Shown here piece after piece: positions 14,495 to 56,950 of a stretch of DNA of 64,000 bases (position 1 is its first letter; every line of letters begins with the position of its first letter). The notes under the pieces were generated by a model that was given only the letters and a program-made list of their open reading frames with translations, searched no databases and was not told where the DNA came from. Source of the stretch: Chloroflexota bacterium (GTDB lineage Bacteria > Chloroflexota > Limnocylindria > Limnocylindrales > CSP1-4); contig JBIQKJ010000005.1 of NCBI GenBank assembly GCA_044506615.1, positions 67,344-131,343 of the forward strand, given 5' to 3'. The position numbers and the translations under genes were made by a program.

Positions 14495-14817
14495 ATTTCG
14501 CTCTCGCCGAAGTCCAGCGGACATTCGTGCGGGGCTCGGCCGTCATTCGAGCGAATCGCGTTTCGGCGCCGCACGAATGTTGCGGGGACTTCGGTCGGAG
14601 CGAAGTTGCCGGCGAGGCCGAGGCGGCCCGCGCGGCCGGGCTCGCGGCCGGGTTCCGTTCCGGCCCGGCCCGGGAGTTGGGCCACGGCCGGCGTGGGCGC
14701 CCCGCACTTCGCTCTCGCCGAACTCCGGAGGACATTCGTGCGGGGCTCGGCCGTCATTCGGGCGAATCGCGTTTCGGCGCCGCACGAATGTTGCGGGGAC
14801 TTCGGTCGGAGCGAAGT
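14495..14817 (+). repeat. Cluster 1 of the ~113-bp structured palindromic repeat family: copies at 14495-14606 and 14705-14817 (period 210 bp)
   Basis: Each copy: hairpin CTTCG-N7-CGAAG, box ACATTCGTGCGGGGC, ~35-nt centre, box GCGCCGCACGAATGT, hairpin ACTTCGGTCGGAGCGAAGT; the two copies are 98% identical. Confidence 0.85.
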
Positions 14818-15011
14818 CGCCGGCGCGGCAGGTGCGGCCTGCGCGAACCACGGCCTTGGCGCCGGCGCAGCTCCGCCTGACTGGCCGCTCCGTGCGCCAC
14901 GAGCCCCCTTCGGAGCGCGGGACACGGACGGACATCAGCCGCCCGGCCGCGATAAGCACCGCGTAAGCGCCGAAGAAGCAGTGGGTAATCGGCGGCCGCT
15001 ACCGTGTCAGG

Positions 15012-15491
15012 ATGGGCAAGCGCGCGAGAGGGTCACGGGCTCCCGGACAGGGGAAGGACGCCGCCCGGGAGACGCTCACCGTCAGGCGGGTGTTCGAGAC
15101 GTGGTGGGTGCCGGTGCCGGACGGCTTCGCCGAGCGATGGATCGCCGATGGCAACTACTGGCACGCGTGGGACGAGCGACGCTCGATCTCGGTGTCCAGC
15201 ACGGTCATCACCGACAGGGAAACGGGCCGGCCCGTCATGGCCGACGAGATCGCGCCCACGTTCGCGAGGTTGCTCACGGGCGAGCCCATCGACGATCTGC
15301 CGCCCGGACTTCGAGGGCGCGCGACAATCACGACGGTCGACGGCGATGCCCGCGCGGCACGAGCGTTGACCGGCTGCCTCGCCGCAGACGGGCGGATCCT
15401 GATTGCGACCATCACGAGCGACGACCTTGCCTGGGCGAAACGCATCTGGTGCTCGATCGCCTACCGTCCGCCGGCGGCGCGTCGGCGCTGA
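15012..15491 (+). CDS. Hypothetical protein (159 aa) bracketed by repeat-element clusters
   Basis: ATG 15012; codon usage slightly atypical (AGA, AGG, GAA, GAT present); no family recognisable. Confidence 0.4.
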   Translation: MGKRARGSRAPGQGKDAARETLTVRRVFETWWVPVPDGFAERWIADGNYWHAWDERRSISVSSTVITDRETGRPVMADEIAPTFARLLTGEPIDDLPPGLRGRATITTVDGDARAARALTGCLAADGRILIATITSDDLAWAKRIWCSIAYRPPAARRR

Positions 15492-15603
15492 ACCCGGCGG
15501 CCGCCGCGGTTCGACGGAAGGGTCGCCGGCCACGCGCCCGCCTGGAGCACGCGTCGCCTGGCCGAGTGATCCGAGGGTCCGTCTCGACTCGGCGAGCCTC
15601 GCC

Positions 15604-15716
15604 CACTTCGCTCTCGCCGATCTCCTCGGAACATTCGTGCAGGGCTCGACGCAGATTCCGCGGAATCGGGACCGACTCGTGCACGAATGTTGCGCACACA
15701 TCGGTGCGACCGAAGT
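15604..15716 (+). repeat. Cluster 1' copy of the ~113-bp palindromic repeat family (diverged copy)
   Basis: CACTTCGCTCTCGCCGA...GAACATTCGTGCAGG...GTGCACGAATGTTGCGC...CGACCGAAGT. Confidence 0.75.
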
Positions 15717-15720
15717 CGGG

Positions 15721-15840
15721 GGCCGGGCGAGGCCGGGCGAGGCCGGGCGAGGCCGAGGAGGTTGGGCGAGGCCGGCGAGGCCGGGCGCCGGGCCCCGCGT
15801 GGCGGGCGGGCGCCGCGTGGCGGGCCGGGCGCCGCGTGAT
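15721..15840. repeat. GC-rich short tandem repeats ((GGCCGGGCGA)3 and (GCGCCGCGTGGCGGG)~3)
   Basis: Read directly. Confidence 0.6.
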
Positions 15841-16091
15841 GGGAGCCGCAAGCACGGCCGGCGGCCCGCCCCGGGGTTACGGCCGCCGTCCGCACGCCCG
15901 GGTTCGGCAAGCCGACACAGCCCTCGGCCCGGTTGACGCCCCGTGCAGCCCGCGATGATCGACCGATGAGGGCCGCTCGCTAGGCTGCGCAGCGTCCTCG
16001 AGGTTCGGATGGCGGGAGGAATCGGCGGGCTTCCGTCGTTCGGGCCTCGAGGGCTCCGATCCCGCCGGTCCCCCGCAGCCAGGAGGTTCCG

Positions 16092-16859
16092 ATGGCCGAC
16101 GCGCACGCCCCCCGGACCGTCGGGCGCGCGATCCGCGAGCTGCCGGCCGCCGAGCGACCCCGCGAGCGGCTCGCCCAGCGCGGCGTCGGCGGTCTGACCG
16201 CGGCGGAGCTGATCGGGCTCGTGTGGGGCTCGGGAGGCCGCGGCCGCAGCGCGGTCGACATCGCGACCGACGCCCTCGCGGCCCACGACGGGCTCTCGGG
16301 CCTCGCCCGCGCGACCGAGCTGGAGCTCGCGTCGATCGGCGGCGTCGGGCCGGCCAAGGCGGCGCAGCTCCTCGCGGCCTTCGAGCTCGGCCGGCGGCTC
16401 CTTGCCGACTGGCCGGCCGGTCGCTGGACGGTCCGCAACCCGCGGGACGTCGCCGACCGGCTGATCCTCCAGATGGGCCGGCTCGAGCGCGAGGAGCTGC
16501 GGACCGTGATCCTCGACGCGAAGAACCACGTCCTCCGCGTCGCCACGGTCTACCAGGGCAACGTGAGCGCCTCGCTCGTGCGCGTCGGCGAGCTGTTCCG
16601 GGATGCGGTCCGGCTCAACGCGGCATCGGTCATCCTCGTCCACAACCACCCCTCGGGCGACCCGACCCCGAGCCCCGACGACCTGCATCTCACGGCGGAG
16701 GCGCTGGCCGCCGGCCGGCTGCTGGACATCGACCTGCTCGACCACCTCGTGATCGGGCACGACGCCTACGTGTCGCTGCGCGACCGGGGCGTGGCCTTCG
16801 ACCGGCCGTCGCTCGGGTCGGGGCTGCGGGCGGCATCGGCCACGCACGAGGCACGCTGA
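16092..16859 (+). CDS. radC: RadC-family JAB/MPN domain protein (UPF0758)
   Basis: HhH N-domain plus JAMM motif HNHPSGDPTPSPDD; ATG preceded by AGGAGG. Confidence 0.85.
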   Translation: MADAHAPRTVGRAIRELPAAERPRERLAQRGVGGLTAAELIGLVWGSGGRGRSAVDIATDALAAHDGLSGLARATELELASIGGVGPAKAAQLLAAFELGRRLLADWPAGRWTVRNPRDVADRLILQMGRLEREELRTVILDAKNHVLRVATVYQGNVSASLVRVGELFRDAVRLNAASVILVHNHPSGDPTPSPDDLHLTAEALAAGRLLDIDLLDHLVIGHDAYVSLRDRGVAFDRPSLGSGLRAASATHEAR

Positions 16860-17040
16860 CGGGCCGCCGCGACGTGCCGCCCGCCGGGCCGCCCGCAGCG
16901 CGAGCGGGGAGGCGGCCGCGGACCGGCGCCGGCGAGCGACCGGGTATACTGCGGCGGCTTCCCGCGTGATTTCACGTGCCCCGGCCCCGCACCGCCCCGC
17001 GCACGTCGCGATTCCTCCCAGGAAGGACCCGCCCGCCATC

Positions 17041-18093
17041 ATGTTCGACCGCCTGCTCGGCCTCTTCTCCCGGGACATCGGGATCGACCTCGGCACCGCC
17101 AACACGCTGGTCCACGTGCGGGATCGCGGCATCGTCATGAGCGAACCGTCGGTCGTCGCGATCGACGCGAAGACCAAGCGGGTGCTGGCGATCGGCGCCG
17201 AGGCGAAGCGGATGGTCGGTCGCACGCCCGCCAACATCATCGCGGTCCGCCCGCTCCGTGACGGGGTCATCAGCGACTTCGACGTCACCGAGCAGATGAT
17301 CAAGTACTTCGTGAACCGGGTGCACGACCGGGTCGGGCTCATCCCGCGGCCGCGGATGCTGCTCGGCATCCCGTCGGGCGTGACCGAGGTCGAGAAGCGG
17401 GCCGTCCGCGACGCCGCGCTCAACTCGGGCGCCCGCTGGGCCCGGCTCATCGAGGAGCCGATGGCCGCGGCGATCGGTGCCGGGCTGCCGGTCAGCGAGC
17501 CGTCGGGCAGCCTGATCGTCGACATCGGCGGCGGCACGACCGAGGTGGCGGTGATCAGCCTCGGCGGGATCGTCGTGAGCCGCAGCATCCGGATCGGCGG
17601 CGACGAGATGGACCAGGACATCGTCACATTCGCCCGGCGCGAGTACAACCTGTTCCTCGGCGAGCGGACCTCGGAGGACATCAAGATCGCGATCGGGTCC
17701 GCGTACCCCGGGGAGTGGGACCAGCAGCGGGTCACGCTCCGCGGTCGCGATCTGCTGACGGGGCTGCCGCGCAGCGTCGAGGTCGGCGCCGACCAGATCC
17801 GCGAGGCGATCGAGCCGTCCGTCGTCCAGATCGTCGACACGATCAAGGACACGATCGAGGAGACCCCGCCCGAGCTCGTCGCCGACATCATGGACCAGGG
17901 GATCGTGCTCGCCGGCGGCGGCGCGCTCCTCGTCGGGCTCGACCGGCGCGTCGCCGAGGCCACCCAGATGCCGGTCCACGTCGCCGACGACCCGCTCACG
18001 TGCGTCGCCCGAGGCACGGGCATGGTGCTCCAGGAGCTCGAGCGGATGGACCGCGTCCTCGTCTCGGACACCTACTCGCGTCCACCCCGCTAG
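17041..18093 (+). CDS. mreB: Rod shape-determining protein MreB (actin-like ATPase)
   Basis: MFDRLLGLFSRDIGIDLGTANTLV..., 350 aa, strongly MreB-like throughout. Confidence 0.9.
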   Translation: MFDRLLGLFSRDIGIDLGTANTLVHVRDRGIVMSEPSVVAIDAKTKRVLAIGAEAKRMVGRTPANIIAVRPLRDGVISDFDVTEQMIKYFVNRVHDRVGLIPRPRMLLGIPSGVTEVEKRAVRDAALNSGARWARLIEEPMAAAIGAGLPVSEPSGSLIVDIGGGTTEVAVISLGGIVVSRSIRIGGDEMDQDIVTFARREYNLFLGERTSEDIKIAIGSAYPGEWDQQRVTLRGRDLLTGLPRSVEVGADQIREAIEPSVVQIVDTIKDTIEETPPELVADIMDQGIVLAGGGALLVGLDRRVAEATQMPVHVADDPLTCVARGTGMVLQELERMDRVLVSDTYSRPPR

Positions 18094-18142
18094 CCGATCG
18101 CGCCGTTCGCGCTGCCCGCGCCGCGTAGACTGAGCCGACGCG

Positions 18143-19093
18143 ATGACCGCCATCCTTGCCACGAAAGCTGCGCGACGCAAGGCGATCACGTTCGCGATCC
18201 TGGTCGCGATCACGCTGCTGCTCATGGCGTTCTCGAGCAACCCGCTGCTCGTCGAGGTCCAGAAGGGCGTCGCGTTCGCGTTCCGACCGGCCCAGCAGGC
18301 CGTCGACGGCGTCGCCGGCGGCGTGGCCGGGGTCGTCGCGACGATCAGCGAGATCGACACGCTTCGCCGCGACAACGCCGCGCTTCGCGAGGAGAACGAC
18401 CTGCTCCGGGCCGAGAACGGTCGCCTCCAGGAGGTGCGCCGCGAGAACGATCTGCTGACCGGGCTCCTCCAGCTCCAGGCCGGCTTCGAGCACGAGACGG
18501 TGGCCGCGTCGATCGTCGGCCGCGAGCCGGCCGAGTTCCGACGGTCCGTGACGATCGACCGGGGCACCGAGGACGGGATCGAGGAGGGCGACGTCGTGAT
18601 CGCGGGCGGCGGCGCGCTCGTCGGCCGGGCGGTCGAGGTGGGGCCGAACTTCGCTACCGTGACGCTCCTCACGGACGGCTCCTCGACGGTCATCGGCCAG
18701 CTCGTCACCTCCGCCGCGACCGGCGAGGTCGTCGGGCAGCTCGGCGGCGCGCTGACGATGACGAAGATCGATGCGAGCGCGCGGCTCCAGCTCGGCGAGG
18801 AGGTCGTCACGGCCGGGATCGAGCTCGGCGGCGGGATCCGCTCGCCCTACCCGCGCGGCCTGCTGATCGGCCAGGTCATCGACGTGCGGCGGGACGCGAA
18901 CGACGTCGTCCAGACCGCCTTCCTCGAGCCCGCCGCGGCGCTCGACCGGCTCGAGTACGTGCTCGTCATCACCGACTACGACGGCGGGCTGCCACCGGCC
19001 GAGGAGCAGCCGATCGACTGCGAGAACCCGACCTCGAGCGACGGCGTCCTCCCGGAGGGCGAGCAGCCGTGCCTGCCGGAACCGACCCAGTGA
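18143..19093 (+). CDS. mreC: Rod shape-determining protein MreC
   Basis: N-terminal TM, coiled-coil (LRRDNAALREENDLLRAENGRLQE), C-terminal beta domains; directly downstream of mreB. Confidence 0.8.
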   Translation: MTAILATKAARRKAITFAILVAITLLLMAFSSNPLLVEVQKGVAFAFRPAQQAVDGVAGGVAGVVATISEIDTLRRDNAALREENDLLRAENGRLQEVRRENDLLTGLLQLQAGFEHETVAASIVGREPAEFRRSVTIDRGTEDGIEEGDVVIAGGGALVGRAVEVGPNFATVTLLTDGSSTVIGQLVTSAATGEVVGQLGGALTMTKIDASARLQLGEEVVTAGIELGGGIRSPYPRGLLIGQVIDVRRDANDVVQTAFLEPAAALDRLEYVLVITDYDGGLPPAEEQPIDCENPTSSDGVLPEGEQPCLPEPTQ

Positions 19094-19106
19094 CCGCGAG
19101 GGACGC

Positions 19107-19868
19107 ATGAAGGGGATCGTGCTCGCAGGCGGAACGGCGACCCGCCTCTTCCCGCTGACGATCGTGACCAACAAGCACCTGCTGCCGATCTACGACCGGC
19201 CGATGATCTACTACCCGATCGAGACGCTTGCCGGCATGGGCATCAGCGAGGTGCTCGTCGTCGTGGGCGGCAAGAGCGTCGGCGACGTCGTCGAGCTGCT
19301 CGCCGACGGCTCGCATTTCGGGCTCGATCTCACGTACCGCTATCAGCGGGGCGCGCTCGGGATCGCCCACGCGATCGGGCTCGCCCGGCGATGGGTCGGG
19401 GACGCGCCGTTCTGCGTCGTGCTCGGGGACAACATCCTGCGCGGGCCCGAGCTGGCCGACGTCGCGGCCGAGTTCGAGTCGGGGCCGTGGGGCGCGGGCA
19501 CGCTCCTCTACCGCGTGCCCGACCCGGAACGCTTCGGCGTGGCCGAGCTGGACGCCGAGGGCAGGGTCGTCGGCTTCGAGGAAAAGCCGGCGGTTCCGAA
19601 GTCCGACCTGATCCCGATCGGCGTGTACTTCCTCCGTCCCGATGCCTTCGACGTCATCGGCCGGCTCGCGCCGTCGGGTCGCGGCGAGTTCGAGATCACC
19701 GACGTCCTCAACCACTACGTCCGGGACGGGCGGCTCTTCAGCCGCGTCTACGACGGCCACTGGACCGACGCCGGGACGGTGCCGAGCCTCCTGCGCGCCG
19801 CTCAGCTCGCCGCGGACGACGACGCCGACGGCCGGCTGACCCGCCCACGCCAGCGACCGACCGAATGA
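19107..19868 (+). CDS. rmlA: Glucose-1-phosphate thymidylyltransferase-like sugar nucleotidyltransferase (short RmlA-type)
   Basis: MKGIVLAGGTATRLFPLT...K motif; stop overlaps rmlB start. Confidence 0.75.
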   Translation: MKGIVLAGGTATRLFPLTIVTNKHLLPIYDRPMIYYPIETLAGMGISEVLVVVGGKSVGDVVELLADGSHFGLDLTYRYQRGALGIAHAIGLARRWVGDAPFCVVLGDNILRGPELADVAAEFESGPWGAGTLLYRVPDPERFGVAELDAEGRVVGFEEKPAVPKSDLIPIGVYFLRPDAFDVIGRLAPSGRGEFEITDVLNHYVRDGRLFSRVYDGHWTDAGTVPSLLRAAQLAADDDADGRLTRPRQRPTE

Positions 19869-20968
19869 CCGGCGCCCACCACTTCGAGCACATCCTCGTC
19901 ACCGGCGGCGCCGGCTTCATCGGCTCTGCCTACGTCCGGGACGTCCTGGCGCGACGCGACGGGACCCGCATCACGGTCCTCGACAAGCTGACCTACGCCG
20001 GCAACGAGGCCAACCTGGGGCCGGCCCACGCGGACCCGGAGCAGGTCGCCCGGCTGCGGTTCGTCCGGGGCGACATCGCCGACCCTGAGATCGTCGCCCC
20101 GCTCGTCGCCGACGCCGATGCGATCGTCAACTTCGCAGCCGAATCGCACGTCGACCGCTCGATCCTCGATCCCGAGGCATTCCTCCGGACCGACGTGATC
20201 GGGGTCCACGTGCTGCTCGAGGCGTGCCGGCGCGAGGCGGAACGCGCCGCCCGGGGGGAGCGAGCGGCCGCCCCGCGCTTTCTCCAGGTCTCGACCGACG
20301 AGGTCTACGGCTCGGTCGAGCAGGGTGAGTCGACCGAGGCCGACCGGCTCGCGCCGCGCTCGCCCTACGCCGCCGCGAAGGCCGGCGGCGAGCTGCTCGC
20401 GCGGAGCTACCACGTGACGTACGGGCTCGACGTCGTCGTCACCCGGGGCTCGAACACGTACGGGCCGTACCACCACCCCGAGAAGCTCATCCCGCTGTTC
20501 GTTACGAACGCGCTCGACGACCGGCCGCTGCCGCTCTACGGCGACGGCCTGCAGCGGCGTGACTGGCTGTTCGTGTCGGACCACGCGGCCGCGGTCGACT
20601 TCGTGCTGCGAAACGGCGCGGCAGGGGAGACCTACAACGTGCCGGGTGGCACCGAGATGGCGAACCGCGACACGGTGGCGCTGCTGCTCGAGCTGCTCGG
20701 CAAGCCCTGGTCGCTCGTGCGGTACGTCGAGGACCGGCCGGGGCACGACCGGCGCTACGCGATGGACGGCGCGAAGCTGCGCGCGCTCGGCTGGGAGCCG
20801 TCGATGCCCTTCCACGAGGGCCTGGCCGCGACCGTCGCGTGGTACCGCGACAACGAGGCGTGGTGGCGGGCGGCGCGGTCGGGCGACTGGGATGCCTACT
20901 ACGAGCGCCAGTACGGCCGGCGGCTGCGCGAGGCGGAGACGGCGGCGAGCGCCACCGGAGAGAGCTGA
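19865..20968 (+). CDS. rmlB: dTDP-glucose 4,6-dehydratase
   Basis: ILVTGGAGFIGSAYVR..., YxxxK SDR extended family, ...PGHDRRYAMD... Confidence 0.9.
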   Translation: MTGAHHFEHILVTGGAGFIGSAYVRDVLARRDGTRITVLDKLTYAGNEANLGPAHADPEQVARLRFVRGDIADPEIVAPLVADADAIVNFAAESHVDRSILDPEAFLRTDVIGVHVLLEACRREAERAARGERAAAPRFLQVSTDEVYGSVEQGESTEADRLAPRSPYAAAKAGGELLARSYHVTYGLDVVVTRGSNTYGPYHHPEKLIPLFVTNALDDRPLPLYGDGLQRRDWLFVSDHAAAVDFVLRNGAAGETYNVPGGTEMANRDTVALLLELLGKPWSLVRYVEDRPGHDRRYAMDGAKLRALGWEPSMPFHEGLAATVAWYRDNEAWWRAARSGDWDAYYERQYGRRLREAETAASATGES

Positions 20969-20971
20969 GCC

Positions 20972-21895
20972 GTGCGGGTGGCTGTGACCGGCGCGAAGGG
21001 CCGGCTCGGGCGGGCCCTCGTCGGGGCGTTCGAGGAGGCTCCGTACACGGGGCCCTTCGGGCCGATCGCATGGGACCGGTCTGCCTTCGACCTCGACGCG
21101 CCAGACGCGATCGGCGCCCGTCTCGATGCGGACCGCCCCGAGGTCGTCGTCCATGCCGCGGCCTGGACCGACGTCGACGGCTGCGCCCGCGACCCCGAGC
21201 TCGCCATGACCCGCAACGCGACCGCGACCGGTGTGCTCGCGACGGCCTGCGCCGAGCGGGGGATCGACCTCGTCGTTGTCTCGACCAACGAGGTCTTCGA
21301 CGGCCGGCGGACCGATGGCTCCGGGTACACGCCCGACGACGAGCCGAACCCGATCAACCCGTACGGCGCCTCGAAGCTGGCCGGCGAGCGCGCGGCGGCC
21401 GACGCGTACGACCGCGCCGCGGCCGGCGCCCGGCTCGCGATCGTTCGGACGGCGTGGCTGTTCGGGCCGGGCAAGCCGGACTTCCCGACGAAGATCCTCG
21501 CCGCGGCGACGCGCGCTGCCGAAGCCCGCGAGCCGCTCCGCGTCGTCGGCGACGAGTGGGGGACCCCGACCTACGTCGCCGACCTGGCCGACGGGATCGC
21601 CGAGCTCCTCGCCGAGCCCGACGTCGGCGGCGTGCACCACGTCGTCAACGGGCTGTTCGCGAGGCGGTCCGACTGGGCGCGCTACGTCGTCGGTCGAGCC
21701 CAGCTCGACGTCGAGGTCGTCGACGTGCCGGCCTCGACCTGGGAGCGCGCCTCGACGCCGCCCCGATGGGGCGTGCTCGAGCCGACCCCGCTGCCGTCCG
21801 GCGAGCCGCTCCGTTCCTGGCCGGACGCCATGGCCGACTACGCGCCGATCCTGCTGCGCGAGGCCGGCGTCGGCGCCAAGGGACGGCGAAGATGA
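20972..21895 (+). CDS. rmlD: dTDP-4-dehydrorhamnose reductase
   Basis: GTG 20972; MRVAVTGAKGRLG..., RmlD-like throughout. Confidence 0.85.
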   Translation: MRVAVTGAKGRLGRALVGAFEEAPYTGPFGPIAWDRSAFDLDAPDAIGARLDADRPEVVVHAAAWTDVDGCARDPELAMTRNATATGVLATACAERGIDLVVVSTNEVFDGRRTDGSGYTPDDEPNPINPYGASKLAGERAAADAYDRAAAGARLAIVRTAWLFGPGKPDFPTKILAAATRAAEAREPLRVVGDEWGTPTYVADLADGIAELLAEPDVGGVHHVVNGLFARRSDWARYVVGRAQLDVEVVDVPASTWERASTPPRWGVLEPTPLPSGEPLRSWPDAMADYAPILLREAGVGAKGRRR

Positions 21896-22437
21896 CGACG
21901 CGGCACGAACCCTCGCGGCTGCCGGGTGTCGCGTGGGGCGCGGTCGAGCGCCACGCCGACGAGCGGGGCGCCTTCCGCGAGCTCTGGCGCCACAGCGTCC
22001 TGCCCGAGCCGTTCGTGCAGGCGAACGTGTCGACGTCGGCGCAGGGCGTGCTCCGCGGTCTCCACCTCCATCGCCGCCAGGCGGACCACTGGATCGTGCT
22101 GACGGGGCGCGCGTTCGTTGCCCTCGTCGATGCCCGGCCGCTCCTCGAGGGGACGGGCGATCGGCCGCTGGTCGAGACCCGCGAGCTCGAGGCCGATGGC
22201 ACCGTCACGATCCCGGCGGGCGTCGCCCACGGCTTCCTCGCGCTCGAGCCGCTCGAGCTCCTGTACCTCGTGACCAACGAGTACGACGGATCGGACGAGC
22301 TGGGCTTCGCCTGGGACGACCCCGCGGTCGGCGTCCCGTGGCCGCGCGTGCCGGGCACCGCGGAGGGTCTCCCCATCCTGTCGATTCGGGATCGCTCGAA
22401 CCCCTCGCTCGCGGAGCTCGTCGCGAGCCTTCGCTGA
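21892..22437 (+). CDS. rmlC: dTDP-4-dehydrorhamnose 3,5-epimerase (cupin)
   Basis: ATGA overlap with rmlD; RGLHLHRRQADHWIV..., 181 aa. Confidence 0.85.
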   Translation: MTTRHEPSRLPGVAWGAVERHADERGAFRELWRHSVLPEPFVQANVSTSAQGVLRGLHLHRRQADHWIVLTGRAFVALVDARPLLEGTGDRPLVETRELEADGTVTIPAGVAHGFLALEPLELLYLVTNEYDGSDELGFAWDDPAVGVPWPRVPGTAEGLPILSIRDRSNPSLAELVASLR

Positions 22438-22639
22438 CCCTGTGACGGGCGCCGTGCGCGGTGCCTCCCGGAAACCGCGCGAGGCCCCCGGACCCCACCG
22501 CTCCGCGCGATTCCGTACTCGGGTCGCGCTGAACGGGCTACCTGATCCCTGACCATCCCGCGATTGAGCCGCCAACGCGCTCGCGGGAGGCTCTGCGTGC
22601 ACTTATCCAGCACCCGGTCCTCATCCCGCGGAGCCCGCA

Positions 22640-24922: not shown

Positions 24923-24962
24923 CCGGCTGGCCGGTGCACCGGCGCCGCTACACTTGCCGGCG

Positions 24963-27091: not shown

Positions 27092-27100
27092 GCCGACCGA

Positions 27101-29184: not shown

Positions 29185-29188
29185 ATCG

Positions 29189-29803
29189 GTGATCGACGAG
29201 GCGGCGCGCATCGACCCGACGGCGTCGGTCGACCCCGCCGTCGAGATCGGGCCCGAGACGACGATCGGGCGGGGCGTGCTGATCGAGGCGGAGGTCCGCG
29301 TCGGTGCGCGCTCGACGATCCACGACGGCGCGCGCCTCTACCGCGGGACGACGGTCGAGGACGGCGTGTTCGTCGGCCCGAACGCGATCGTCACCAACGA
29401 CCGCTATCCACGCGCGATCACCTGGGACGGCCGGCGCGCCGAAGCGGCGGACTGGGAGCCGACTTCCGTGACGCTCGGGGAGGGATGCTCGATCGGGGCC
29501 GGCGCGATCGTCGTCGCGGGCAATGACGTCGGCCGGTTCGCGCTCGTCGGCGCGGGTGCGGTCGTGACCCGGCCGGTGCCCGCCCATGCCCTCGTCGTCG
29601 GCACACCGGCCCACCGGATCGGCTGGGTGTGCGCCTGCGGTCGGCGGCTCGTCGACTCGAGCGGCGATCCGGCTCCGGCCGAGGTCGAGCGCTACCGGAT
29701 CGACCCGACGCTCGCCTGTCCGCGCTGCGGGCGCCACTACGCGTACGTGCCGGAGGACGACGACCTCAAGGAGCGCCGAGGCCCGACCGGCCCGCGAGGG
29801 TGA
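29189..29803 (+). CDS. Hexapeptide-repeat (left-handed beta-helix) acyl/acetyltransferase with C-terminal zinc ribbon
   Basis: GTG 29189; multiple [LIV]-G-x-x-x-x hexapeptides; CACGRR...CPRCGRHY. Confidence 0.7.
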   Translation: MIDEAARIDPTASVDPAVEIGPETTIGRGVLIEAEVRVGARSTIHDGARLYRGTTVEDGVFVGPNAIVTNDRYPRAITWDGRRAEAADWEPTSVTLGEGCSIGAGAIVVAGNDVGRFALVGAGAVVTRPVPAHALVVGTPAHRIGWVCACGRRLVDSSGDPAPAEVERYRIDPTLACPRCGRHYAYVPEDDDLKERRGPTGPRG

Positions 29804-29805
29804 GC

Positions 29806-30500
29806 GGGGGGTCCGGCCCTGCCAGGGCCCTCGGACCGAAGTTGGCCCGGGCCGGCCCAGCCCGGGCCCTCGGCCGGGCCCGGCCTGCCCGCGGCCCACG
29901 GCCCTTCGACCCGGCCGATTTCGGTCCGGCCGAAGCCCCGGGAACATTCACGCGGGGCTGACCACGGAATCCGCACAACTGGCCGCGATCCCTGCACGAA
30001 TGTTCGTGGGACTTCGCGCGGAGCGAAGTTGGCCCTGCCAGGGCCCTCGGCCCTGCCAGGGCCCTCCGCCCCAGGTTGGCCCGGCCCGCCCGCGATCCCT
30101 CGGCCCGGCCGGCCCGCGGCCCACGGCCCGTCGACCCGGCCGATTTCGGTCCGGCCGAAGTGCCGGGAACATTCACGCGGGGCTAATCACGAAATCCGCA
30201 CAACTGGCCGCGATCCCTGCACGAATGTTCGTGGGACTTCGCGCCGAGCGAAGTTGGCCCTGCCAGGACCCTCGGCCTGCCCGCGGCCCTCGGCCCCAGG
30301 TTGGCCCGGCCCGCCCGCGATCCCTCGGCCCGGCCTGCCCGCGGCCCACGGTCCTTCGACCCGGCCGATTTCGGTCCGGCCGAAATACCGGGAACATTCA
30401 CGCGGGGCCGACCACCAAGTCCGCACAACTGGCCGCGATCCCTGCACGAATGTTCGTGGGACTTCGCTCGGGGCGAAGTCGGCCTCGGTGGGCCCCCAGG
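29806..30500 (+). repeat. Cluster 2: higher-order tandem array (~225-bp unit x 3) each carrying one ~113-bp structured palindromic element (29917-30029, 30142-30254, 30366-30479) plus a ~110-bp GC-rich segment
   Basis: Units ~95% identical; element = TTCGGTCCGGCCGAAG hairpin, GAACATTCACGCGGGG, centre, CCTGCACGAATGTTCGTGGG, ACTTCGCGCGGAGCGAAGT hairpin. Confidence 0.85.
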
Positions 30501-30528: not shown

Positions 30529-31341
30529 CTAGATCCGCCCCGCGGCCAGGCGCGCGGCCTTCGCCGCCTTGGCCTCCTGCATGTGCTGCTGGTGCAGCTC
30601 CACGACCGCCTGCGGCGCGCCCTCCAGCACGACCTGCCCCCGCTCGACGAGGATCGCCCGGTTGCAGTACTCGGTCACCCAGCCCATGTCGTGCGTCACC
30701 AGCACGACCGCCTTGGCCTTGCGCACGAGCTCGATGACCCGTGCCTTCGACTTCGCCCGGAACGCGGCATCGCCAGTGGCGAGCACCTCGTCGAGGAGCA
30801 GGATGTCGGGGTCGACCGACGTCGCGATCGAGAAGCCGAGCCGCGCCCGCATGCCGGACGAGTACGTCTTGAGCGGCGCGTCGATGAACTCGCCGAGGTC
30901 GGCGAACTCGATGATCGACGGGAGAAGCTCGCGAGTCACCGCGTCGTCGAGACCGAGGAACGCCCCGCCGAGCAGGATGTTGTCCCGTCCCGAGAGCTCG
31001 CTGTCGAACCCGGCGCCGAGCGTCAGCAACCCAGACACGTGCCCGTGGACGTCGACGGTCCCTTCGGACGGCTTGAGGATTCCGGCGAGCACCTGGAGGA
31101 GCGTGCTCTTGCCCGCACCGTTCGGGCCGATGATCGCCAGCGACTCCCCGTGGGTCAGGTCGAACGAGACGTGGCGGAGCGCCCAGAACTGCTTGCCGCT
31201 CTGCCGGTTGATCAGGTTCGACAGCTGCTGCCGGATCGTCACCTTCCGGTTGAAGCGCAGGTTGTAGTAGACCCCGAGGTCCCGGACCTGGATCGCGTAC
31301 GGCGCGCCGGCACGCAGCCGGGGCGGAGCCTCGACGGTCAT
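30529..31341 (-). CDS. ABC transporter ATP-binding protein, polysaccharide/teichoic-acid export type (Wzt/TagH-like)
   Basis: Walker A GPNGAGKST, signature YSSGMRARL, Walker B ILLLDE. Confidence 0.85.
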   Translation of the reverse strand: MTVEAPPRLRAGAPYAIQVRDLGVYYNLRFNRKVTIRQQLSNLINRQSGKQFWALRHVSFDLTHGESLAIIGPNGAGKSTLLQVLAGILKPSEGTVDVHGHVSGLLTLGAGFDSELSGRDNILLGGAFLGLDDAVTRELLPSIIEFADLGEFIDAPLKTYSSGMRARLGFSIATSVDPDILLLDEVLATGDAAFRAKSKARVIELVRKAKAVVLVTHDMGWVTEYCNRAILVERGQVVLEGAPQAVVELHQQHMQEAKAAKAARLAAGRI

Positions 31342-47943: not shown

Positions 47944-47946
47944 CGG

Positions 47947-49982: not shown

Positions 49983-51138
49983 GGCCCGCACCCCCCAGGG
50001 ACGGATTCCGCTCGCGGAGCCGTCGATCGGCGGCAATGCGGCGCGGTACCTGGCCGAGTGCCTCGCGACCAACTTCGTGTCGTCGGTGGGGCCGTTCGTC
50101 GGGCGGTTCGAGGAGGAGTTCGCGCGCGCGGTCGGGGCCGGGCATGCGGTCGCCTGCGCGTCGGGGACGGCCGCGATCCACCTCGCGCTGCGCGTCCTCG
50201 ACGTCGGGCCCGGCGACGAGGTCCTCGTCCCCACGCTCACGTTCGTGGCGTCGGCCAACCCGGTCCGCTACGTCGGCGCCGAGCCCGTGCTCGTCGACGT
50301 CGAGCCCGAGACGTACAACCTCGATCCGGACGCGGTCGTTGCGGAGCTCGACCGGCGCTCCCGGACCGGCGAGCGGCAGCCCGCCGCCATCGAGGTCGTC
50401 CACCTGCTCGGGCATCCGGCCGCGATCGAGCCGGTCGTCGAGGCAGCCGAACGCCACGGTGTCCCGGTGGTCGAGGACGCGTCGGAGGCGCTCGGCGCGA
50501 CGTACCGCGGCGGTCGCTGGGACGGGCGCGCGGTCGGCACGATCGGGCGGGTGGGCTGCTTCAGCTTCAACGGCAACAAGCTCATCACGACCGGCGGGGG
50601 CGGGATGCTCGTCACCGACGACGAGGCGCTTGCCCGGCGCGCCCGCCACCTCTCCACGCAGGCCCGCCTGCCCGGGCCGGCCTACGACCACGACGAGGTC
50701 GGCTACAACTACCGGCTCTCGAACGTGGCGGCCGCCCTCGGGGTCGCCCAGCTCGAGCAGCTCGCGGATCTGCTCGCGGCGCGTCGACGCATCGCCGGCA
50801 GGTACGACGCCTGGATCGCCGGCCGTCCCGGGCTCGTCCCGGCGCCGCGCGCTCCGTGGGCCGACCCGTCGTTCTGGCTGTACACGACCGCCGCGGACCC
50901 CGACGCGACCGACTGCTCGCGCGACGACCTGCTCGCGGCGCTGGCCGCCGACGGGATCGAAGGCCGGCCGATCTGGACGCCGCTCCACCGGACCCGGCTG
51001 TACGCCGACGCCCGGCACATCGGCGGCGACACCGCGGACCGCATCTTCGCGCGCGCCTTCAGCCTGCCCTCGTCGTCGAGCCTGACGGACCTCCAGCAGG
51101 ACCGGGTCATGGCCGCGCTGGAGGCCGCGCTCCGGTGA
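49969..51138 (+). CDS. DegT/DnrJ/EryC1/StrS family PLP-dependent sugar aminotransferase (LegC/PseC-like)
   Basis: IPLAEPSIGG..., FSFNGNK PLP lysine motif. Confidence 0.85.
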   Translation: MSSSEARTPQGRIPLAEPSIGGNAARYLAECLATNFVSSVGPFVGRFEEEFARAVGAGHAVACASGTAAIHLALRVLDVGPGDEVLVPTLTFVASANPVRYVGAEPVLVDVEPETYNLDPDAVVAELDRRSRTGERQPAAIEVVHLLGHPAAIEPVVEAAERHGVPVVEDASEALGATYRGGRWDGRAVGTIGRVGCFSFNGNKLITTGGGGMLVTDDEALARRARHLSTQARLPGPAYDHDEVGYNYRLSNVAAALGVAQLEQLADLLAARRRIAGRYDAWIAGRPGLVPAPRAPWADPSFWLYTTAADPDATDCSRDDLLAALAADGIEGRPIWTPLHRTRLYADARHIGGDTADRIFARAFSLPSSSSLTDLQQDRVMAALEAALR

Positions 51139-51229
51139 CGGGGCGCCCCGCCTCGGCTGCGCCCGGCCGTTGCGGGACCGAGGTTGGGGTACGATACCGG
51201 CCCGTCCGTTGCCGGCTCCCTGCCGGCCC

Positions 51230-52978
51230 ATGCCAAAGGATCCTTCCTCGCCGATGACGTTTCGTGCCAAACCCGTCGTGAAGCGGTCGCGCCCGCAGTG
51301 GGAGTCGCAGGACCGCCGGACCTTCCTGACGAACCTCGCCTTCGGGCTCGTGATCGTGGCCGCGATCGTGATCCTCCTGATCGCCGTCGCCTTCACCTGG
51401 TACAACGATCACCTCGCCCCCGTCGGCAGCGTCGACGGGCAGACGATCACCCGGGACGAGCTCAACACCCGGATGCGGATCGAGGAGTGGCGCCTCGACG
51501 AGACGCTGCGGCGCATCTCGACCCAGGCGGCCGCCGGCCGGCTGACCGAGGAGGAGGCCAGCAGCCAGCGCAGCCTCGTCGACGCGCAGCGCCAGTCGCT
51601 CGACGCGATTGCGCTCGAGCGGATCATCGACAATCGGCTCCAGGCGAGGCTGGCCGGGGAGGAAGGGATCGCGGTCGCCGACGCCGACGTCGACGCCAAG
51701 CTCCTCGAGGAGGCGACGACGCCCGAGGCACGGCACGCGTGGGTCATCGAGGTCGAGCCAGCGGTCAGCGACGGCGCGACCGAGCCGACCGCCGCCCAGG
51801 TGGCCGACGCCCGTCGCACGGCCGAGGCCGCGCTCGCCGATCTGCGCGCCGGCAAGGCCTGGGAGGACGTGGCGAAGACCGTCTCGACCGACGCGTCGAC
51901 GCGCGAGCAGGGCGGCGACCTCGGCTGGATCCAGGCCGAGGACGCGAGCCTCGACCCGGCGTTCGTCGCCGCGCTGTTCGAGCTCGAGCCGAACGCCCCG
52001 AGCGAGGTCCTCGAGGGCGACGACGGCACGTTCCGCATCGGCCGGGTGAGCGAGGTGGCCGCCGAGTCCGTCGACGACCTGTACACGACGAAGCTGCAGA
52101 ACGACGGGGTCGACCTTGCCGCGTACCGCGAGGTCGTCCGGGGCGACGTGCTCCGCGACAAGCTCGAGGAGAAGATCGTCGCCGACGTCATCAAGCCGGG
52201 GCCCCAGCGGCGCGTCCAGGAGATCTTCATCCAGGACCCGCAGTCGGAGGTGCCCGAGGGCTCGCTCAAGGTCCGCCACATCCTCTACTCGCCGAACGAC
52301 GAGCCCAGCCCGACGACCCCGCTGCCCAGCGACGATCCCTCCTGGGAGGAGGCCGAGTCCGAGGCGCGCGACGCCTACGAGCGGCTCCAGGCCGACCCCG
52401 ACCTGTTCGACGAGATCGCTCGAACCGAGAGCGACGAGGACGTCGCGCTCGGGCCGACCGGCACGGGCGGCAAGCTCGGCGGCTACGTTGCCCCCGAGGA
52501 CAACCTGGTCCAGGAGTTCCTCGACGCGATCTTCGCCGACGGCGTCGAGGAGGGCGAGATCCTCGAGCCGGTCCGGACGCAGTTCGGGTGGCACGTCATC
52601 CAGGTGATGTACGGCCCGCCGGACATCGACCAGATGGAGAAGATCAAGCGCGAGGCGGATGCCGGCGCGAGCTTCGCCCAGCTCGCCCGCGACTTCTCGG
52701 AGTCCGACACGGCCGGCAACGGCGGCGAGGTCGGCTGGATCGCCCGGGGTCAGCTCGACGACCAGCTCACGGTCGCGATCTTCGGCGCGAAGGTCGGCGA
52801 GACGACCCAGATCGTGGAGGTGGAGGGCGACGGCCTGTACCTGTACAAGGTGCTCGAGGAGGAGACGCGCACGCCGCAGGGCCGCCAGCTCGAGCAGCTC
52901 CGCTCGACCGCGTTCAACGACTGGTACACCGAGAAGAAGGACGCGGCCGAGATCGTGCGCTTCGGCGACGCCGGGTAG
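51230..52978 (+). CDS. Membrane-anchored parvulin-type peptidyl-prolyl cis-trans isomerase (PrsA/SurA-like, two PpiC domains)
   Basis: N-terminal TM anchor; LKVRHILY... and GWHVIQV parvulin motifs. Confidence 0.75.
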
Positions 52979-52981
52979 GCC

Positions 52982-54154
52982 GTGCTGGACGCCCTCGTCG
53001 CCGAGGCACGGCTGCGCTGGGGGCTCGATCTCGCCGCCGGCCTCCAGGTGGTCGCCACCGAGCGACTCGTGGCGACCCCGGTCGAGCCGTCGCGGCCGCT
53101 CCTGCTCATCCCGCTCGCGGTGCTGCGGGTGAACGGCGAGGCCGCCGCGTCCGAGGTCGAGCCGCTGCCCGGCCGACACGGACCGGCGGGTCGCGACGCG
53201 CTTCGCCTGCTCGCGCGGCTCTACCCGTCCGAGCACGCGGTCGGGCGGTTCGGCGTCGAGGAGGGCACCACGGTGGGGGCGCTGGACGCGACGGCGCTCG
53301 GCGGGCCGCTCTACCTGAGCCCGGTCGCCCCGGAGCTCGCGGTCGCCGGTCCGTGGGCGATGCCCTGGATCTCGGACCGGCTGCGCCGCCCGGACGGCTG
53401 CCCCTGGGACCGCGAGCAGACCCATGCGTCGCTCCGCAAGCACCTGCTCGAGGAGACGTACGAGGTCTACGATGCGCTCGAGGCGGGCGCCACGCCCGAC
53501 CTCGCCGAGGAGCTCGGCGACCTGCTGCTCCAGGTCGTGCTCCATGCGCAGCTCGCGGCCGAGGCCGGCGTGTTCGACCTCGCCGACGTGCAGGCATCGA
53601 TCGCCTCGAAGATCGTCCGGCGGCACCCGCACGTCTTCGGCGAGGCCGAGGCCCGCACTGCCTCCGACGTGAACCGGCAGTGGGAGCGGATCAAGGCCGA
53701 CGAGCGGGCAGCGGCCAGCGCGGCCGGCGCCGCCGACGCAGGTGGCGAAGCGCAGCCGGCGAAGAGCGCGCTCGACGGGATCAGCCCGTCGATGCCGGCG
53801 CTCGCCGCGAGCCAGGAGATGCAGGAGCGGGCCGCGAACCTCGGCTACGACTGGCCGTCGATCGACGGCGTGCTCGACAAGGTCGTCGAGGAGGTCGGCG
53901 AGCTGCGCGAGGCGCCCGACGACTCCGCGTGGGCCGAGGAGTTCGGGGACCTGCTGTTCGTCCTCGTGAACGTCGCCCGCAAGCACGGCATCGAGGCCGA
54001 GGCCGCGGTCCGGGCGGCCAACGACAAGTTCCGCCGCCGCTTCCGGAGCGTCGAGCGCCAGGCCGCCGAGCGCGGTGTGGCGCTGCGCGAGCTGGACTTC
54101 GCGGCGCTCGACGAGCTGTGGGATGCCGCCAAGGCGGAGGAGACGACACGATGA
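52982..54154 (+). CDS. mazG: MazG-family nucleoside triphosphate pyrophosphohydrolase
   Basis: Two MazG EExxE/EExGD helices ([20 protein letters not shown]). Confidence 0.8.
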
Positions 54155-54888
54155 CGATCGGGAACCGCCCGCCGACGGTCCGCAGCGACGGCCGCGGCCC
54201 GAACGACCTGCGGCCGGTGAGCTTCCAGCTCGGCGTCCAGAAGTGGGCCGAAGGCTCGTGCCTGATCAAGGTCGGCGACACGCAGGTGCTGTGCGCCGCG
54301 ACGATCGCGGACCGCGTCCCGCCCCACCTCCGCGGCAAGGGCACGGGCTGGGTGACCGCCGAGTACTCGATGCTGCCCCGGGCGACCGCCGAGCGCACGG
54401 ACCGCGAGTCGTCGAAGGGCCGCGTCGGTGGGCGCACCCACGAGATCCAGCGGCTGATCGGGCGCTCGCTGCGCGGCGTCGTCGACCTGTCGCGGCTCGG
54501 GGAGCGCACGGTCACCGTCGACTGCGACGTGCTCCAGGCCGACGGCGGCACGCGCACCGCCTCGATCACCGGCGGCTACGTTGCGCTCGCCGCGGCGCTG
54601 ATCACGTACGGCATGGAGCGGCTGCTCGTCGCGAAGATCGCTGCGGTCTCGGTCGGGATCGTCGGCGGCACGCCCTACCTCGACCTCGACTACTCGGAGG
54701 ATTCGCGGGCGGAGGTCGACTTCAACGTCGTCGGCACCGACGCGGGCACGTACGTCGAGCTGCAGGGCACGGCCGAGGGCCGGCCGTTCGACCGAGCCGC
54801 CGCGAACAACCTGTTCGACCTCGCCGACGCCGGGCTCGCCCGGCTGTTCGAGGCACAGGCCGCCGTTCTCGCCACCGTCCGGCGGTGA
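54151..54888 (+). CDS. rph: Ribonuclease PH
   Basis: ATGA overlap with mazG; [28 protein letters not shown]..., 245 aa. Confidence 0.9.
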
Positions 54889-55565
54889 GCGACGCGGCCG
54901 GCGGGCCGGCCCCCGTGGCGCCCGTCGGGGAGCGTCGACGGCTCGTGATCGCCACACGATCTGCGCACAAGCTGCGTGAGCTGCGCGAGCTGCTCGCGCT
55001 CGAGCGGACCGAGCTCGTCTCGCTCGACGAGCTGGGCGTCCCCGGCGACCCGATCGAGGACGGCCGGACGTTCGAGACGAATGCTCGGATCAAGGCGCGC
55101 TTCGCGTACGCCGCGACCGGGCTGCCGTCGCTCGCCGACGATTCGGGGATCGAGGTCGATGCGCTCGGGGGCGGTCCGGGCGTTCGCACTCGGCGCTACG
55201 CCGGTGAGGACGCGACCGACGAGGACAACAACACGAAGCTGCTCGACGCGCTCGGCGAGCTGCCGCCCGAGGCGCGTGGCGCCCGGTACGTGTGCGTGCT
55301 CGCGCTGGCGCTGCCACCCCCGGATGGAGCCGGGCCGACCGCGCGCCCACGGATCCTGACCGCGCGCGGCACGTGCCGCGGCCGGATCGCCCGCGCGCCG
55401 AAGGGCACCGGCGGGTTCGGCTACGACCCGATCTTCGAGCCCGCGTCGGAGCCGCCCGGCGGCCGGACGCTCGGCCTGTGGTCGCCGGCCGAGAAGCACG
55501 CGATCTCGCACCGTGCCCGTGCGGCGCGGCGGATGGCCGGGCGGCTCGCGGCGCTCGGGTTCTGA
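54885..55565 (+). CDS. rdgB: Non-canonical purine NTP pyrophosphatase (RdgB/HAM1 family)
   Basis: GTGA overlap with rph; ...FGYDPIF... motif. Confidence 0.85.
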
Positions 55566-55567
55566 CC

Positions 55568-56152
55568 GTGCACGAGTTGCGCCGGATCTGCGTGTTCTGC
55601 GGCGCGAGTGCCGGCGGCGATCCCTCGCATGCGGCCCTGGCCAGGTCGGTCGGCACAGACCTCGCGCGGCGCGGCATCGGCGTCGTGTACGGCGGCGGTC
55701 GGGTCGGGCTGATGGGCGAGCTGGCCGGCGCGGCGCTGGCGGCCGGCGGCGAGGTGATCGGGGTCATCCCACAGGCGCTCGTCGACCGCGAGCTCGCGCA
55801 CCCGGGCGCCACCGAGATGCGGGTCGTCGGCTCGCTCCACGAGCGCAAGGCCGAGATGGCCCGGCTCGCCGACGCGTTCATCGCGCTGCCGGGCGGGCTC
55901 GGGACGCTCGAGGAGCTGGCCGAGGTCGCTTCGTGGGCCCAGCTCGACCTCCACGACAAGCCGATCGGCGTCCTGGGCGGGCGCTACTGGGCGCCGCTCC
56001 TCGGCTGGCTGGATCAGGCGGTGGCCGAGGGGTTCATCCCGCCGACGCATCGCCGGCTCGTGCTCGAGGCCGAGGACCTCGGGGCGCTGCTCGAGGCGTT
56101 CGCGGGGTGGGTCGCGCCGCGCGGCCGCTGGGAGGAGCCGGCGCCGAGTTAG
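55568..56152 (+). CDS. LOG family protein (cytokinin riboside 5'-monophosphate phosphoribohydrolase-like, TIGR00730)
   Basis: VFCGAS...GGGxxGLMG...PGGxGTLEE motifs. Confidence 0.8.
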   Translation: MHELRRICVFCGASAGGDPSHAALARSVGTDLARRGIGVVYGGGRVGLMGELAGAALAAGGEVIGVIPQALVDRELAHPGATEMRVVGSLHERKAEMARLADAFIALPGGLGTLEELAEVASWAQLDLHDKPIGVLGGRYWAPLLGWLDQAVAEGFIPPTHRRLVLEAEDLGALLEAFAGWVAPRGRWEEPAPS

Positions 56153-56280
56153 CGGGCGCGGGGCGCGGAGGCCCGGGTCGGGCCGGCCGGGTCGGGCCGG
56201 CCGGGTGGGCCAGGCCCCGACCCAGTTCGGCCCTCGGCCCCGCCAGTTCGGCCCTCGGCCCCAGCCCCCACTTCGGCCCC

Positions 56281-56950
56281 CACTTCGGTCCGAGCGAAGC
56301 CGTCAGCACATTCGTGCGTGGCTACCCGTCGTTCCGGCCAGGATCGCGGCCGCGTCCTGCACGAATGTTGCGAGCGCTTCGGTGCGAGCGAAGTGCCGGG
56401 TCCGCGAAGAAGGCGTGCCCTCGGCCCCCGCTCCCACTTCGGGCCCCACTTCGGTCCGAGCGAAGCCGTCAGCACATTCGTGCGCGACCACCCGTCGTCT
56501 TGGTCAGAATCGCGGTCGCGGCCTGCATGAATGTTGCGAGCGCTTCGGTGCGAGCGAAGTGCCGGGTCCGCGAAGAAGGGCGTGCCGCCCGGCCCCAGCC
56601 CCCACTTCGGCCCCCACTTCGGTCCGAGCGAAGCCGTCAGCACATTCGTGCGTGGCTACCCGTCGTTTCGGCCAGGATCGCGGTCGCAGCCTGCACGAAT
56701 GTTGCGAGCGCTTCGGTGCGAGCGAAGTGCCGGGTCTGCGAAGGAGGCGTGCCCCCGGTCCCGGCCGCCACTTCGGGCCCCGCCCCCACTTCGGCCCCCG
56801 GCCCCAGCCCTCACTTCGGCCCCCGGCCCCAGCCCTCACTTCGGTCCGAGCGAAGCCGTCAGCACATTCGTGCGTGGCTACCCGTCGTTTCGGCCAGGAT
56901 CGCGGTCGCAGCGTGCACGAATGTTGCGAGCGCTTCGGTGCGAGCGAAGT
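56281..56950 (+). repeat. Cluster 4: four tandem copies of the ~113-bp structured palindromic element (56281-56394, 56447-56560, 56616-56728, 56836-56950; periods 166/169/220 bp) separated by CCCCACTTCGGCCCC-type GC-rich linkers
   Basis: Each: CACTTCGGTCCGAGCGAAG hairpin, ACATTCGTGCGTGG, centre, CCTGCACGAATGTTGCG, CGCTTCGGTGCGAGCGAAGTG hairpin. Confidence 0.85.

Follow-up and report, generated by a model that had tools for sequence, protein, structure and literature searches.

A lineage-specific family of ~117-bp palindromic repeats, probably REPIN/MITE-like DNA elements, in a Limnocylindria-like Chloroflexota bacterium

What kind of element is a palindrome of little more than a hundred base pairs that recurs between the genes of an ordinary bacterial chromosome? 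The question is raised by a 64,000-nucleotide stretch of a Chloroflexota genome (GTDB lineage Bacteria; Chloroflexota; Limnocylindria; Limnocylindrales; CSP1-4; assembly GCA_044506615.1, contig JBIQKJ010000005.1, positions 67,344 to 131,343 of the forward strand), hereafter the window. A first-pass annotation, made from the letters alone, had described at least ten copies of a structured repeat in four intergenic clusters, all in one orientation, each with conserved arms, a variable centre and a CUUCG-type hairpin at either end. Their likeness to REP (repetitive extragenic palindromic), BIME and miniature inverted-repeat transposable element (MITE) families had been remarked upon, and a transcribed structured RNA or a protein-recognised DNA element had been proposed. 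We consider that the repeats probably form a family of REPIN/MITE-like DNA palindromes of ~117 bp, non-autonomous and specific to one lineage, and we set out below what carries this reading and what speaks for others.

The box-pair pattern ACATTCRYGC-N30-55-GCAYGAATGT was scanned on both strands of the window, with the expectation taken from shuffles. It matched at 10 plus-strand sites where none was expected, and seven of these matched on the minus strand as well, because the two boxes are complementary to each other. A 35-nt half-element pattern gave 20 half-sites, again against an expectation of zero. When a hidden Markov model built from the copies was run with nhmmer --max, all filters off, exactly 10 copies and no degenerate extra ones were recovered in the window. 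The four clusters and the minimum of ten copies first described are therefore real. The element is ~117 nt long, and all 10 copies are extragenic, falling between coding regions supported by GC content at third codon positions; each of the four loci starts 105–126 nt past the stop codon of a plus-strand gene.

We refer to the copies as c1 to c10 and to their four sequence variants as A to D. Variant A comprises c1 (14492–14608; 95 bits in nhmmer) and c2 (14703–14819), which are 96% identical, and variant B the single copy c3 (15602–15718), 3' of a 159-residue open reading frame (ORF159); all three were assigned to the plus strand. Variant C comprises c4 (29915–30031), placed by nhmmer and the alignment and of indeterminate orientation, together with c5 (30140–30256; 95% identical to c4) and c6 (30365–30481; 91–92% identical to c4 and c5), found by nhmmer and given no strand. 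Variant D, on the plus strand, comprises c7 (56279–56396), c8 (56445–56562; 90% identical to c7), c9 (56613–56730) and c10 (56835–56952), nhmmer again supporting all four, and c10 being 99% identical to c9 in the identity comparison; c8, with the box GCATGAATGT, is the most diverged member of its array. A putative truncated 3' tip of the element (CTCGGACCGAAGTTGGC) was read from the sequence at 29829–29845, just past the upstream gene's stop codon; it scored weakly in nhmmer (E = 8.9), and its assignment is tentative.

Logan contigs from two short-read data sets of the same organism (SRR28167099 and SRR28167100) match the window at 100% identity across 10313–14548 and 14788–17475, c3 included. 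Since two independent short-read assemblies agree with the window, the repeats are not an assembly artefact. The single copy c3 was assembled straight through. Logan contigs L001 and L002 end inside c1 (at window positions 14548 and 14521), and L044 and L045 begin inside c2 (at 14788). The assembly break at 14.5 kb is caused by the tandem pair c1/c2, not by the repeat family as such.

When aligned, the copies present the block order CTTCG-N7-CGAAG, N8, ACATTC(G/A)(T/C)GC, a variable centre of ~40 nt, GCA(C/T)GAATGTT, N7 and CTTCG-N7-CGAAGT, in agreement with the earlier description of conserved arms around a variable centre, and the terminal palindrome reads ACTTCG-N7-CGAAGT. The nested xTTCG...CGAAx blocks and the 10–11-nt box pair ACATTCGTGC / GCACGAATGTT are identical among subfamilies that are otherwise 30–37% diverged, and the box-to-box spacing is fixed at 40–41 bp. 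Columns invariant across the four variants are clumped (longest run 11, permutation p = 0.004) and have a GC content of 57%, compared with 69% for the variable columns and 73% for the genome. The description of a dispersed repeat family, conserved in its arms and variable in its centre, is borne out.

How many insertions the 10 copies represent was answered by comparing identity within and between loci. The core is 63–71% identical between loci and 90–99% identical within a locus; the loci, each with its own variant (A, c1 and c2; B, c3; C, c4 to c6; D, c7 to c10), have unrelated flanks, and repeat finding and Tandem Repeats Finder (TRF) revealed that whole units, element plus flanking DNA, have been duplicated head to tail inside the clusters. 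These observations point to four independent insertions followed by local amplification, so that the count of ten stands as a count of copies but only four of them can be reckoned as separate events. The two-unit duplication at 14472–14845 (plus strand), in which c2 repeats c1 together with its flanks, has a period of 211 nt and includes flanking DNA, ~20 nt on the 5' side and ~30 nt on the 3' side, as supported by repeat finding, by comparison of the flanks and by alignment with a related metagenomic contig (L040, described below). Array C (29877–30484, no strand assigned) consists of the element and a ~108-nt C-rich spacer repeated 2.7 times with a period of 225 nt (92% matches in TRF), and array D (56251–57003, plus strand) of four units with periods of 166, 168 and 222 nt. 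Repeats of a protein-coding sequence were considered and rejected, since neither 166 nor 211 can be divided by 3. A further, 25-nt tandem repeat consists of the element's 5' tip (CCCACTTCGGCCCCC), which recurs 2.8 times before c10 (56776–56844) and twice ahead of c7 to c9 (56240–56281), a pattern that suggests slippage at the element boundary.

The fold of every copy is a single long, imperfect hairpin, with energies between -54 and -72 kcal/mol and z-scores between -4.4 and -7.9 (-72.4 kcal/mol and z -7.9 for c1, -60.2 kcal/mol for c7), and the RNAalifold consensus is the same single long hairpin. The inverted repeat runs from tip to tip of the element, giving it the terminal inverted repeats of a MITE. 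The first-pass annotation had proposed a covariation analysis, which we scored on a 12-sequence alignment, with 500 shuffles and slid alignments as controls. Under the long-hairpin model 84% of cells are paired and nine pairs have changes on both sides; the covariation score is 0.19, compared with a shuffle mean of 0.137 (none of the 500 reached 0.19) and 0.05–0.08 for the slid controls. Compensatory changes are therefore present, but they belong to one long hairpin: pair 29/109 of that hairpin changes from A-U to U-A with pairing kept in c3 and its orthologue, the same two sequences in which the local hairpins each lose a pair (15/29 and 109/124), and no covariation for separate 5' and 3' hairpins was found in this alignment. 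Separate terminal hairpins were accordingly rejected, as the ends pair better with each other than locally. UUCG-like tetraloops were rejected also, because CTTCG and CGAAG are the strands of a stem and not loops.

Orientation was tested by scoring each cluster against a model built from the other three. The plus strand scored above the minus strand for A (63 vs 55 bits), B (73 vs 59) and D (53 vs 45), and cluster C, at 29.9–30.5 kb, gave a tie (46.6 vs 46.3). The element is nearly its own reverse complement. A shared orientation holds for three of the clusters and fails for the fourth, and that all copies point one way is a weak statement at best, not significant for four events. The plus-strand fold is the more stable in 8 of the 10 copies, and variant A has six G-U pairs on the plus strand and none on the minus; variants B and C have no strand preference. 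The argument for a transcribed structured RNA had leaned on a common orientation and on UUCG tetraloops, and it is left unsupported because the orientation is weak and the tetraloops are absent.

The family has a narrow distribution. GuaA, encoded in the window, is 92% identical to proteins named Ca. Limnocylindrales or Chloroflexota metagenome-assembled genome (MAG), its closest named homologues. An actinobacterial host, to which the GC content of 73% had pointed, was rejected on this ground in favour of a Limnocylindria-like member of the Chloroflexota. Relatives were compared over syntenic loci (L033 to L037; GuaA 92–94% identical). No copy of the repeat was found in these ~90 kb of relatives' sequence. 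The gap between the LOG-family and LytR genes is 11 bp in L033 vs 850 bp in the window, and that between the called Rce1-like and radC genes is 190–400 bp in relatives vs 1705 bp in the window. Homology to L034, L035 and L037 is lost near 14345 and regained near 15920, which delimits a lineage-specific block of ~1.57 kb (14350–15920, plus strand) between the Rce1-like gene and the radC leader, containing c1, c2, ORF159, c3 and GC-rich microsatellites. A 1.2-kb soil contig from JGI (L040) carries a partial copy, a full copy, the closest ORF159 homologue (91% identical in amino acids) and another copy, the same layout as in the window. The repeat family is therefore present at the orthologous site in at least one second, closely related genome.

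Beyond these relatives the searches returned nothing but chance. The gathering-threshold Rfam scan of the window matched only a tRNA, and E-value scans of three regions gave chance-level matches only, so the lack of a known family noted at first extends to Rfam. Among GTDB species genomes the exact pattern had one chance match, in a Bacteroidota MAG of 47% GC; JGI metagenomes gave 29 matches, all of them lone half-sites in coding or unrelated DNA without a partner box; viral contigs, plasmids and phages gave chance matches only. Copies decayed to the degree of those in L040 would also escape exact-pattern scans of this kind. A text search of the literature for the box sequences returned unrelated primers only. 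The family is restricted to a narrow Limnocylindria-like lineage and is apparently undescribed, but conventional.

Contig L040 also permits the decay of inserted copies to be followed. Its orthologue of c2 (L040 194–314) is 84.6% identical to the window copy and that of c3 (1091–1207) 89.7%, and third codon positions of the ORF between them are 87.5% identical. Changes affect 8 of 92 box positions (those invariant among the variants) and 23 of 142 variable positions, and one of the L040 orthologues has lost ~16 kcal/mol of folding energy (-38 vs -54 kcal/mol). Inserted copies, boxes included, drift roughly at the neutral, synonymous rate. Such decay argues against a host-selected RNA or protein-binding site and in favour of a selfish element. 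The boxes drift after insertion, yet are identical across subfamilies, and these two facts are most simply reconciled if selection acts when elements are replicated, only those with intact boxes being copied; as judged from few copies, this combination would be the signature of a mobile non-autonomous element.

If the repeats are REPIN/MITE-like elements, their conserved blocks would be what an enzyme encoded at another place in the genome requires to mobilise them. The likeliest candidate would be a transposase of the HUH/Y1 type recognising a hairpin in single-stranded DNA, as in the REP/REPIN-RAYT systems and in IS200/IS605-derived elements. Copying would be limited to intact elements, and a copy, once inserted, would drift neutrally. 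Insertion would have taken place ~105–126 nt 3' of stop codons at four sites, three of which would then have grown, by unequal recombination or slippage, into tandem arrays carrying their flanks. In transcripts reading on from the gene upstream, hairpins of such stability would act, as a by-product, as 3'-end barriers or terminators, in the manner of the REPs of E. coli. Of this picture, the data themselves show the family, its structure, lineage-specific insertion, tandem amplification and near-neutral decay, whereas mobility, the type of enzyme and an effect on RNA are inferred.

Among known systems the closest architectural match is the REPIN. In Pseudomonas fluorescens SBW25, tandem arrays of palindromic doublets include flanking sequences, and the largest ordered cluster contains four units over 700 bp (Bertels & Rainey 2011; PMC3116915). 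Like a REPIN, the window element is ~100–120 bp long and extragenic and has two conserved arms in inverted orientation around a spacer that varies more; as single-stranded DNA or RNA the entire unit forms one long hairpin, and it occurs in near-identical tandem units with flanks, the largest REPIN cluster matching our cluster D. It differs in its Chloroflexota host, in having no sequence similarity and no GTAG tag, in carrying an inner 10–11-nt box pair beside the terminal palindromes, and in the absence of a RAYT from the 64 kb inspected. REP-RAYT systems have a cognate single-copy RAYT gene of the HUH/Y1 type with the repeats on its flanks, and copies scattered through the genome by the tens to hundreds; the 64 kb of the window contain 10 copies at 4 loci. 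REP superfamilies at large are defined by GTAG or CGTC tetranucleotide tags at one end of the palindrome; they lie mostly downstream of coding regions, and their dimers, which form either two separate folds or a single large stem-loop, are reiterated in tandem with flanking DNA to make clusters (Di Nocera et al. 2013; PMC3733652). The same authors describe, in the Chloroflexota species Thermomicrobium roseum, the GTAG-23 family, with large blocks in a GC-rich genome and associated small GC-rich palindromes (PMC3733652). The window element resembles the GTAG/CGTC REPs in its location downstream of genes and in tandem reiteration with flanks.

More distant likenesses follow from size and symmetry. 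The ERIC (IRU) sequences of Enterobacteriaceae and Vibrio are ~127-bp imperfect palindromes in transcribed intergenic regions, and they have in common with our element the size class, a single long imperfect palindrome and a near-symmetry that blurs orientation. Their sequence and host phylum are unrelated, however, and ERICs are not typically arrayed in tandem with flanks. MITEs derived from insertion sequences (IS) with a DDE transposase, for example the Correia elements of Neisseria, have terminal inverted repeats that match the ends of the parent IS, and a fixed target-site duplication. Like them, the window element is short, non-autonomous and intergenic, with terminal inverted repeats and the capacity to form hairpins when transcribed; no parent IS with the same termini was found in the window. 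In IS200/IS605-derived elements the hairpins at the left and right ends differ, and a conserved target of four or five nucleotides adjoins the left end. Distinct end hairpins and a target motif are not demonstrable in the window element; recognition of subterminal hairpins would nevertheless explain terminal palindromes without target-site duplication, and any bias of strand or orientation. Miniature elements derived from this group (PATEs), and single-stranded DNA transposition by TnpA(Y1), are treated in Quentin et al. 2018 (PMC6006769). The REP/BIME/MITE resemblance remarked upon at first was the right neighbourhood. The type III toxin-antitoxin repeats were rejected on context and layout.

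As a REPIN/MITE-like family, the repeat would be a new example of a familiar selfish type rather than a new class of RNA gene, and it opens no new class of biology. It adds a REPIN-like family to a poorly studied, uncultured soil lineage of Chloroflexota; to our knowledge, nearly all such families described so far are from Proteobacteria. The two-step dynamics, dispersal and then tandem amplification with flanks, are those of Pseudomonas REPINs. Arrays of this kind break short-read assemblies and inflate intergenic regions in MAGs, and could be used as strain markers. Discovery of a cognate enzyme would extend the known range of transposases that recognise hairpins, given how unusual the recognition blocks are.

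Several observations weigh against a mobile element of this type. The GTAG or CGTC tag of most REP families is absent from both element ends in the alignments. In the 64-kb window there is no transposase or IS, as had been stated at first, and no RAYT, integrase or tyrosine recombinase, and the only ORF bracketed by copies has a predicted PsbP/Tsi3-like fold and not an HUH fold. Because short-read contigs pass through c3, that copy cannot have a long exact match to any other copy in the genome, and the family thus gives no sign of a recent burst. The edges of the four insertions, where target-site duplications had been suggested as a check, have no consistent direct repeat; the flanks are C-rich 5' and G-rich 3' and simply extend the stem, and the relatives are too diverged to provide empty sites at the nucleotide level. 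The estimate of near-neutral decay draws on 2.6 orthologous copies in one short metagenomic contig. Finally, the six vs zero G-U pairs of variant A hint at some constraint at the level of RNA.

This last point belongs to an explanation that we regard as unlikely, namely that the repeats are cis-acting RNA structures selected by the host in 3' untranslated regions, in which the long hairpin terminates transcription or blocks 3' exonucleases, in both directions between convergent genes, and the arrays are kept as insulators. The position of all four loci shortly past plus-strand stops would fit such a role, as would the two arrays in convergent-gene junctions: array C lies between a hexapeptide transferase gene (plus strand, stop at 29803) and an ABC ATPase gene (minus strand, stop at 30529), array D between the LOG-family gene (plus strand, stop at 56152) and a LytR-CpsA-Psr gene (minus strand, stop at 57003), and they end 47 and 50 nt, respectively, from the opposing stop codon. 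The stability of the hairpins, their compensatory changes and the greater stability of most plus-strand folds point the same way, and the spacers of the two arrays, C-rich and G-poor, resemble a rut site. However, junctions of the same genes in relatives, 11–400 bp long, do without the element; the orthologues drift near the synonymous rate, one with a large loss of stability; and variants B and C lack a strand preference. No U-tract (intrinsic, rho-independent) terminator and no sigma-70-like promoter was found in any cluster, the 3' flanks being GC-rich. Moreover, a plain hairpin does not need box sequences that are strictly conserved.

We consider it rather more doubtful that these repeats of Limnocylindria-like Chloroflexota are a kind of palindromic element, mobile or recruited by the host, that has so far gone unrecognised, with a recognition code unlike that of the GTAG/CGTC REPs (nested xTTCG/CGAAx pentamers plus the ACATTCGTGC box pair) and either moved by an enzyme other than a RAYT or acting as a 3'-end insulator ~110 nt past stops.

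That the repeats serve as arrayed binding sites at which a host protein, whether nucleoid-associated, partition-like or a regulator, recognises duplex DNA appears improbable. The sites would be the nested palindromes CTTCG-N7-CGAAG and ACATTCGTGC-N40-GCACGAATGT, and in favour of this role are sequence-specific palindromic boxes that are relatively AT-rich in a 73% GC genome, invariant among diverged subfamilies and held at a fixed spacing. The copies nevertheless sit at gene 3' ends and convergent junctions, not at promoters, and the compensatory changes in the linker segments imply pairing within a strand rather than recognition of a duplex; in addition, the boxes mutate in the L040 orthologues and the relatives lack the sites.

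The attC sites of integrons are imperfect palindromes, 57–141 bp long, in which the outer boxes are conserved and the centre varies; their recombination takes place on folded single strands. That our repeats are analogous sites bracketing cassettes, with ORF159 between c2 and c3 as one such cassette, is highly improbable: the length, the imperfect palindrome, the outer boxes containing AAC...GTT and the variable centre are attC-like, and ORF159 with its flanking copies forms a lineage-specific insertion conserved as a unit in L040, but the boxes (R)ACATTC and GAATGTT(G/C)(C/G) are unlike the R'' (RYYYAAC) or R' (GTTRRRY) consensus, the window holds no integrase or other tyrosine recombinase, most copies, including those of arrays C and D, have no ORF between them, and homologues of ORF159 occur elsewhere without a flanking repeat.

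ORF159 (15012–15491, 159 aa) is flanked by c2 and c3. It belongs to an orphan family of 14 members with conserved YWHAWD and ATITSDD motifs and has no sequence match in Pfam, NCBIfam or PDB. An AlphaFold2 model (pLDDT 86.6) has a sandwich fold like those of PsbP, Mog1, Tsi3, EagT6 and DcrB, and this predicted fold suggests an immunity- or chaperone-like role. In L041 and L043 a homologue is immediately followed by a PhdYeFM-PIN toxin-antitoxin pair. ORF159 was considered as the transposase of the element and rejected, there being no family match, the modelled fold not being of the HUH type and its homologues occurring elsewhere without repeats.

The window is otherwise ordinary chromosome. It encodes guaA, a UPF0182 protein, an Rce1-like protease, radC-mreBC and a tRNA, together with genes for rhamnose and other cell-envelope sugars, TagF-like transferases, neuB, a PpiC/SurA-like protein, mazG, RNase PH, the LOG-family protein and LytR-CpsA-Psr.

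The spacers of the arrays (30032–30139, 30257–30364, 56153–56278 and 56731–56834) have a GC content of 82–88%, with C at 0.52–0.53 and G at 0.29–0.33. Although the C and D loci are unrelated, their spacers have in common GGCCCTCGGCCCC-type motifs and small palindromes such as GGCCCTGCCAGGGCC; these could represent either a further repeat motif of a simpler kind or a favoured target. Directly 3' of c3 there are GC-rich microsatellites, GGCCGGGCGA repeated 6.9 times (15721–15787) and an 18-mer repeated 2.8 times (15787–15838).

A near-perfect hairpin of ~61 nt (GTCCTCGAGGTTCGGATGGCGGGAGGAATCGGCGGGCTTCCGTCGTTCGGGCCTCGAGGGC) occupies 15996–16056, ~35 nt 5' of the radC start at 16092. It is kept in all four related genomes (the window, L034, L035 and L037) and has a 25-bp stem with many G-U pairs on the plus strand; its changes are one-sided and preserve pairing. 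The hairpin, without a match in the gathering-threshold Rfam scan, may function in the radC-mreBC operon as a leader or as a regulatory RNA.

At 3370–3435 a 14-nt tandem repeat (GGCTCCGCCCATGC, 4.7 copies, 98% matches) lies in the long N-terminal extension of the guaA ORF or in its upstream region; this ORF has 714 aa in the window, compared with ~590 aa for homologues. In the region 54157–56152 of the window the LOG-domain ORF has 286 aa by our own call or 186 aa by the database call P0001, and Pfam assigns it LOG-type domains only. In the relative L033 (10001–11185), downstream of RNase PH, a LOG-family domain is fused to a Ham1/RdgB-like domain in a protein of 394 aa.

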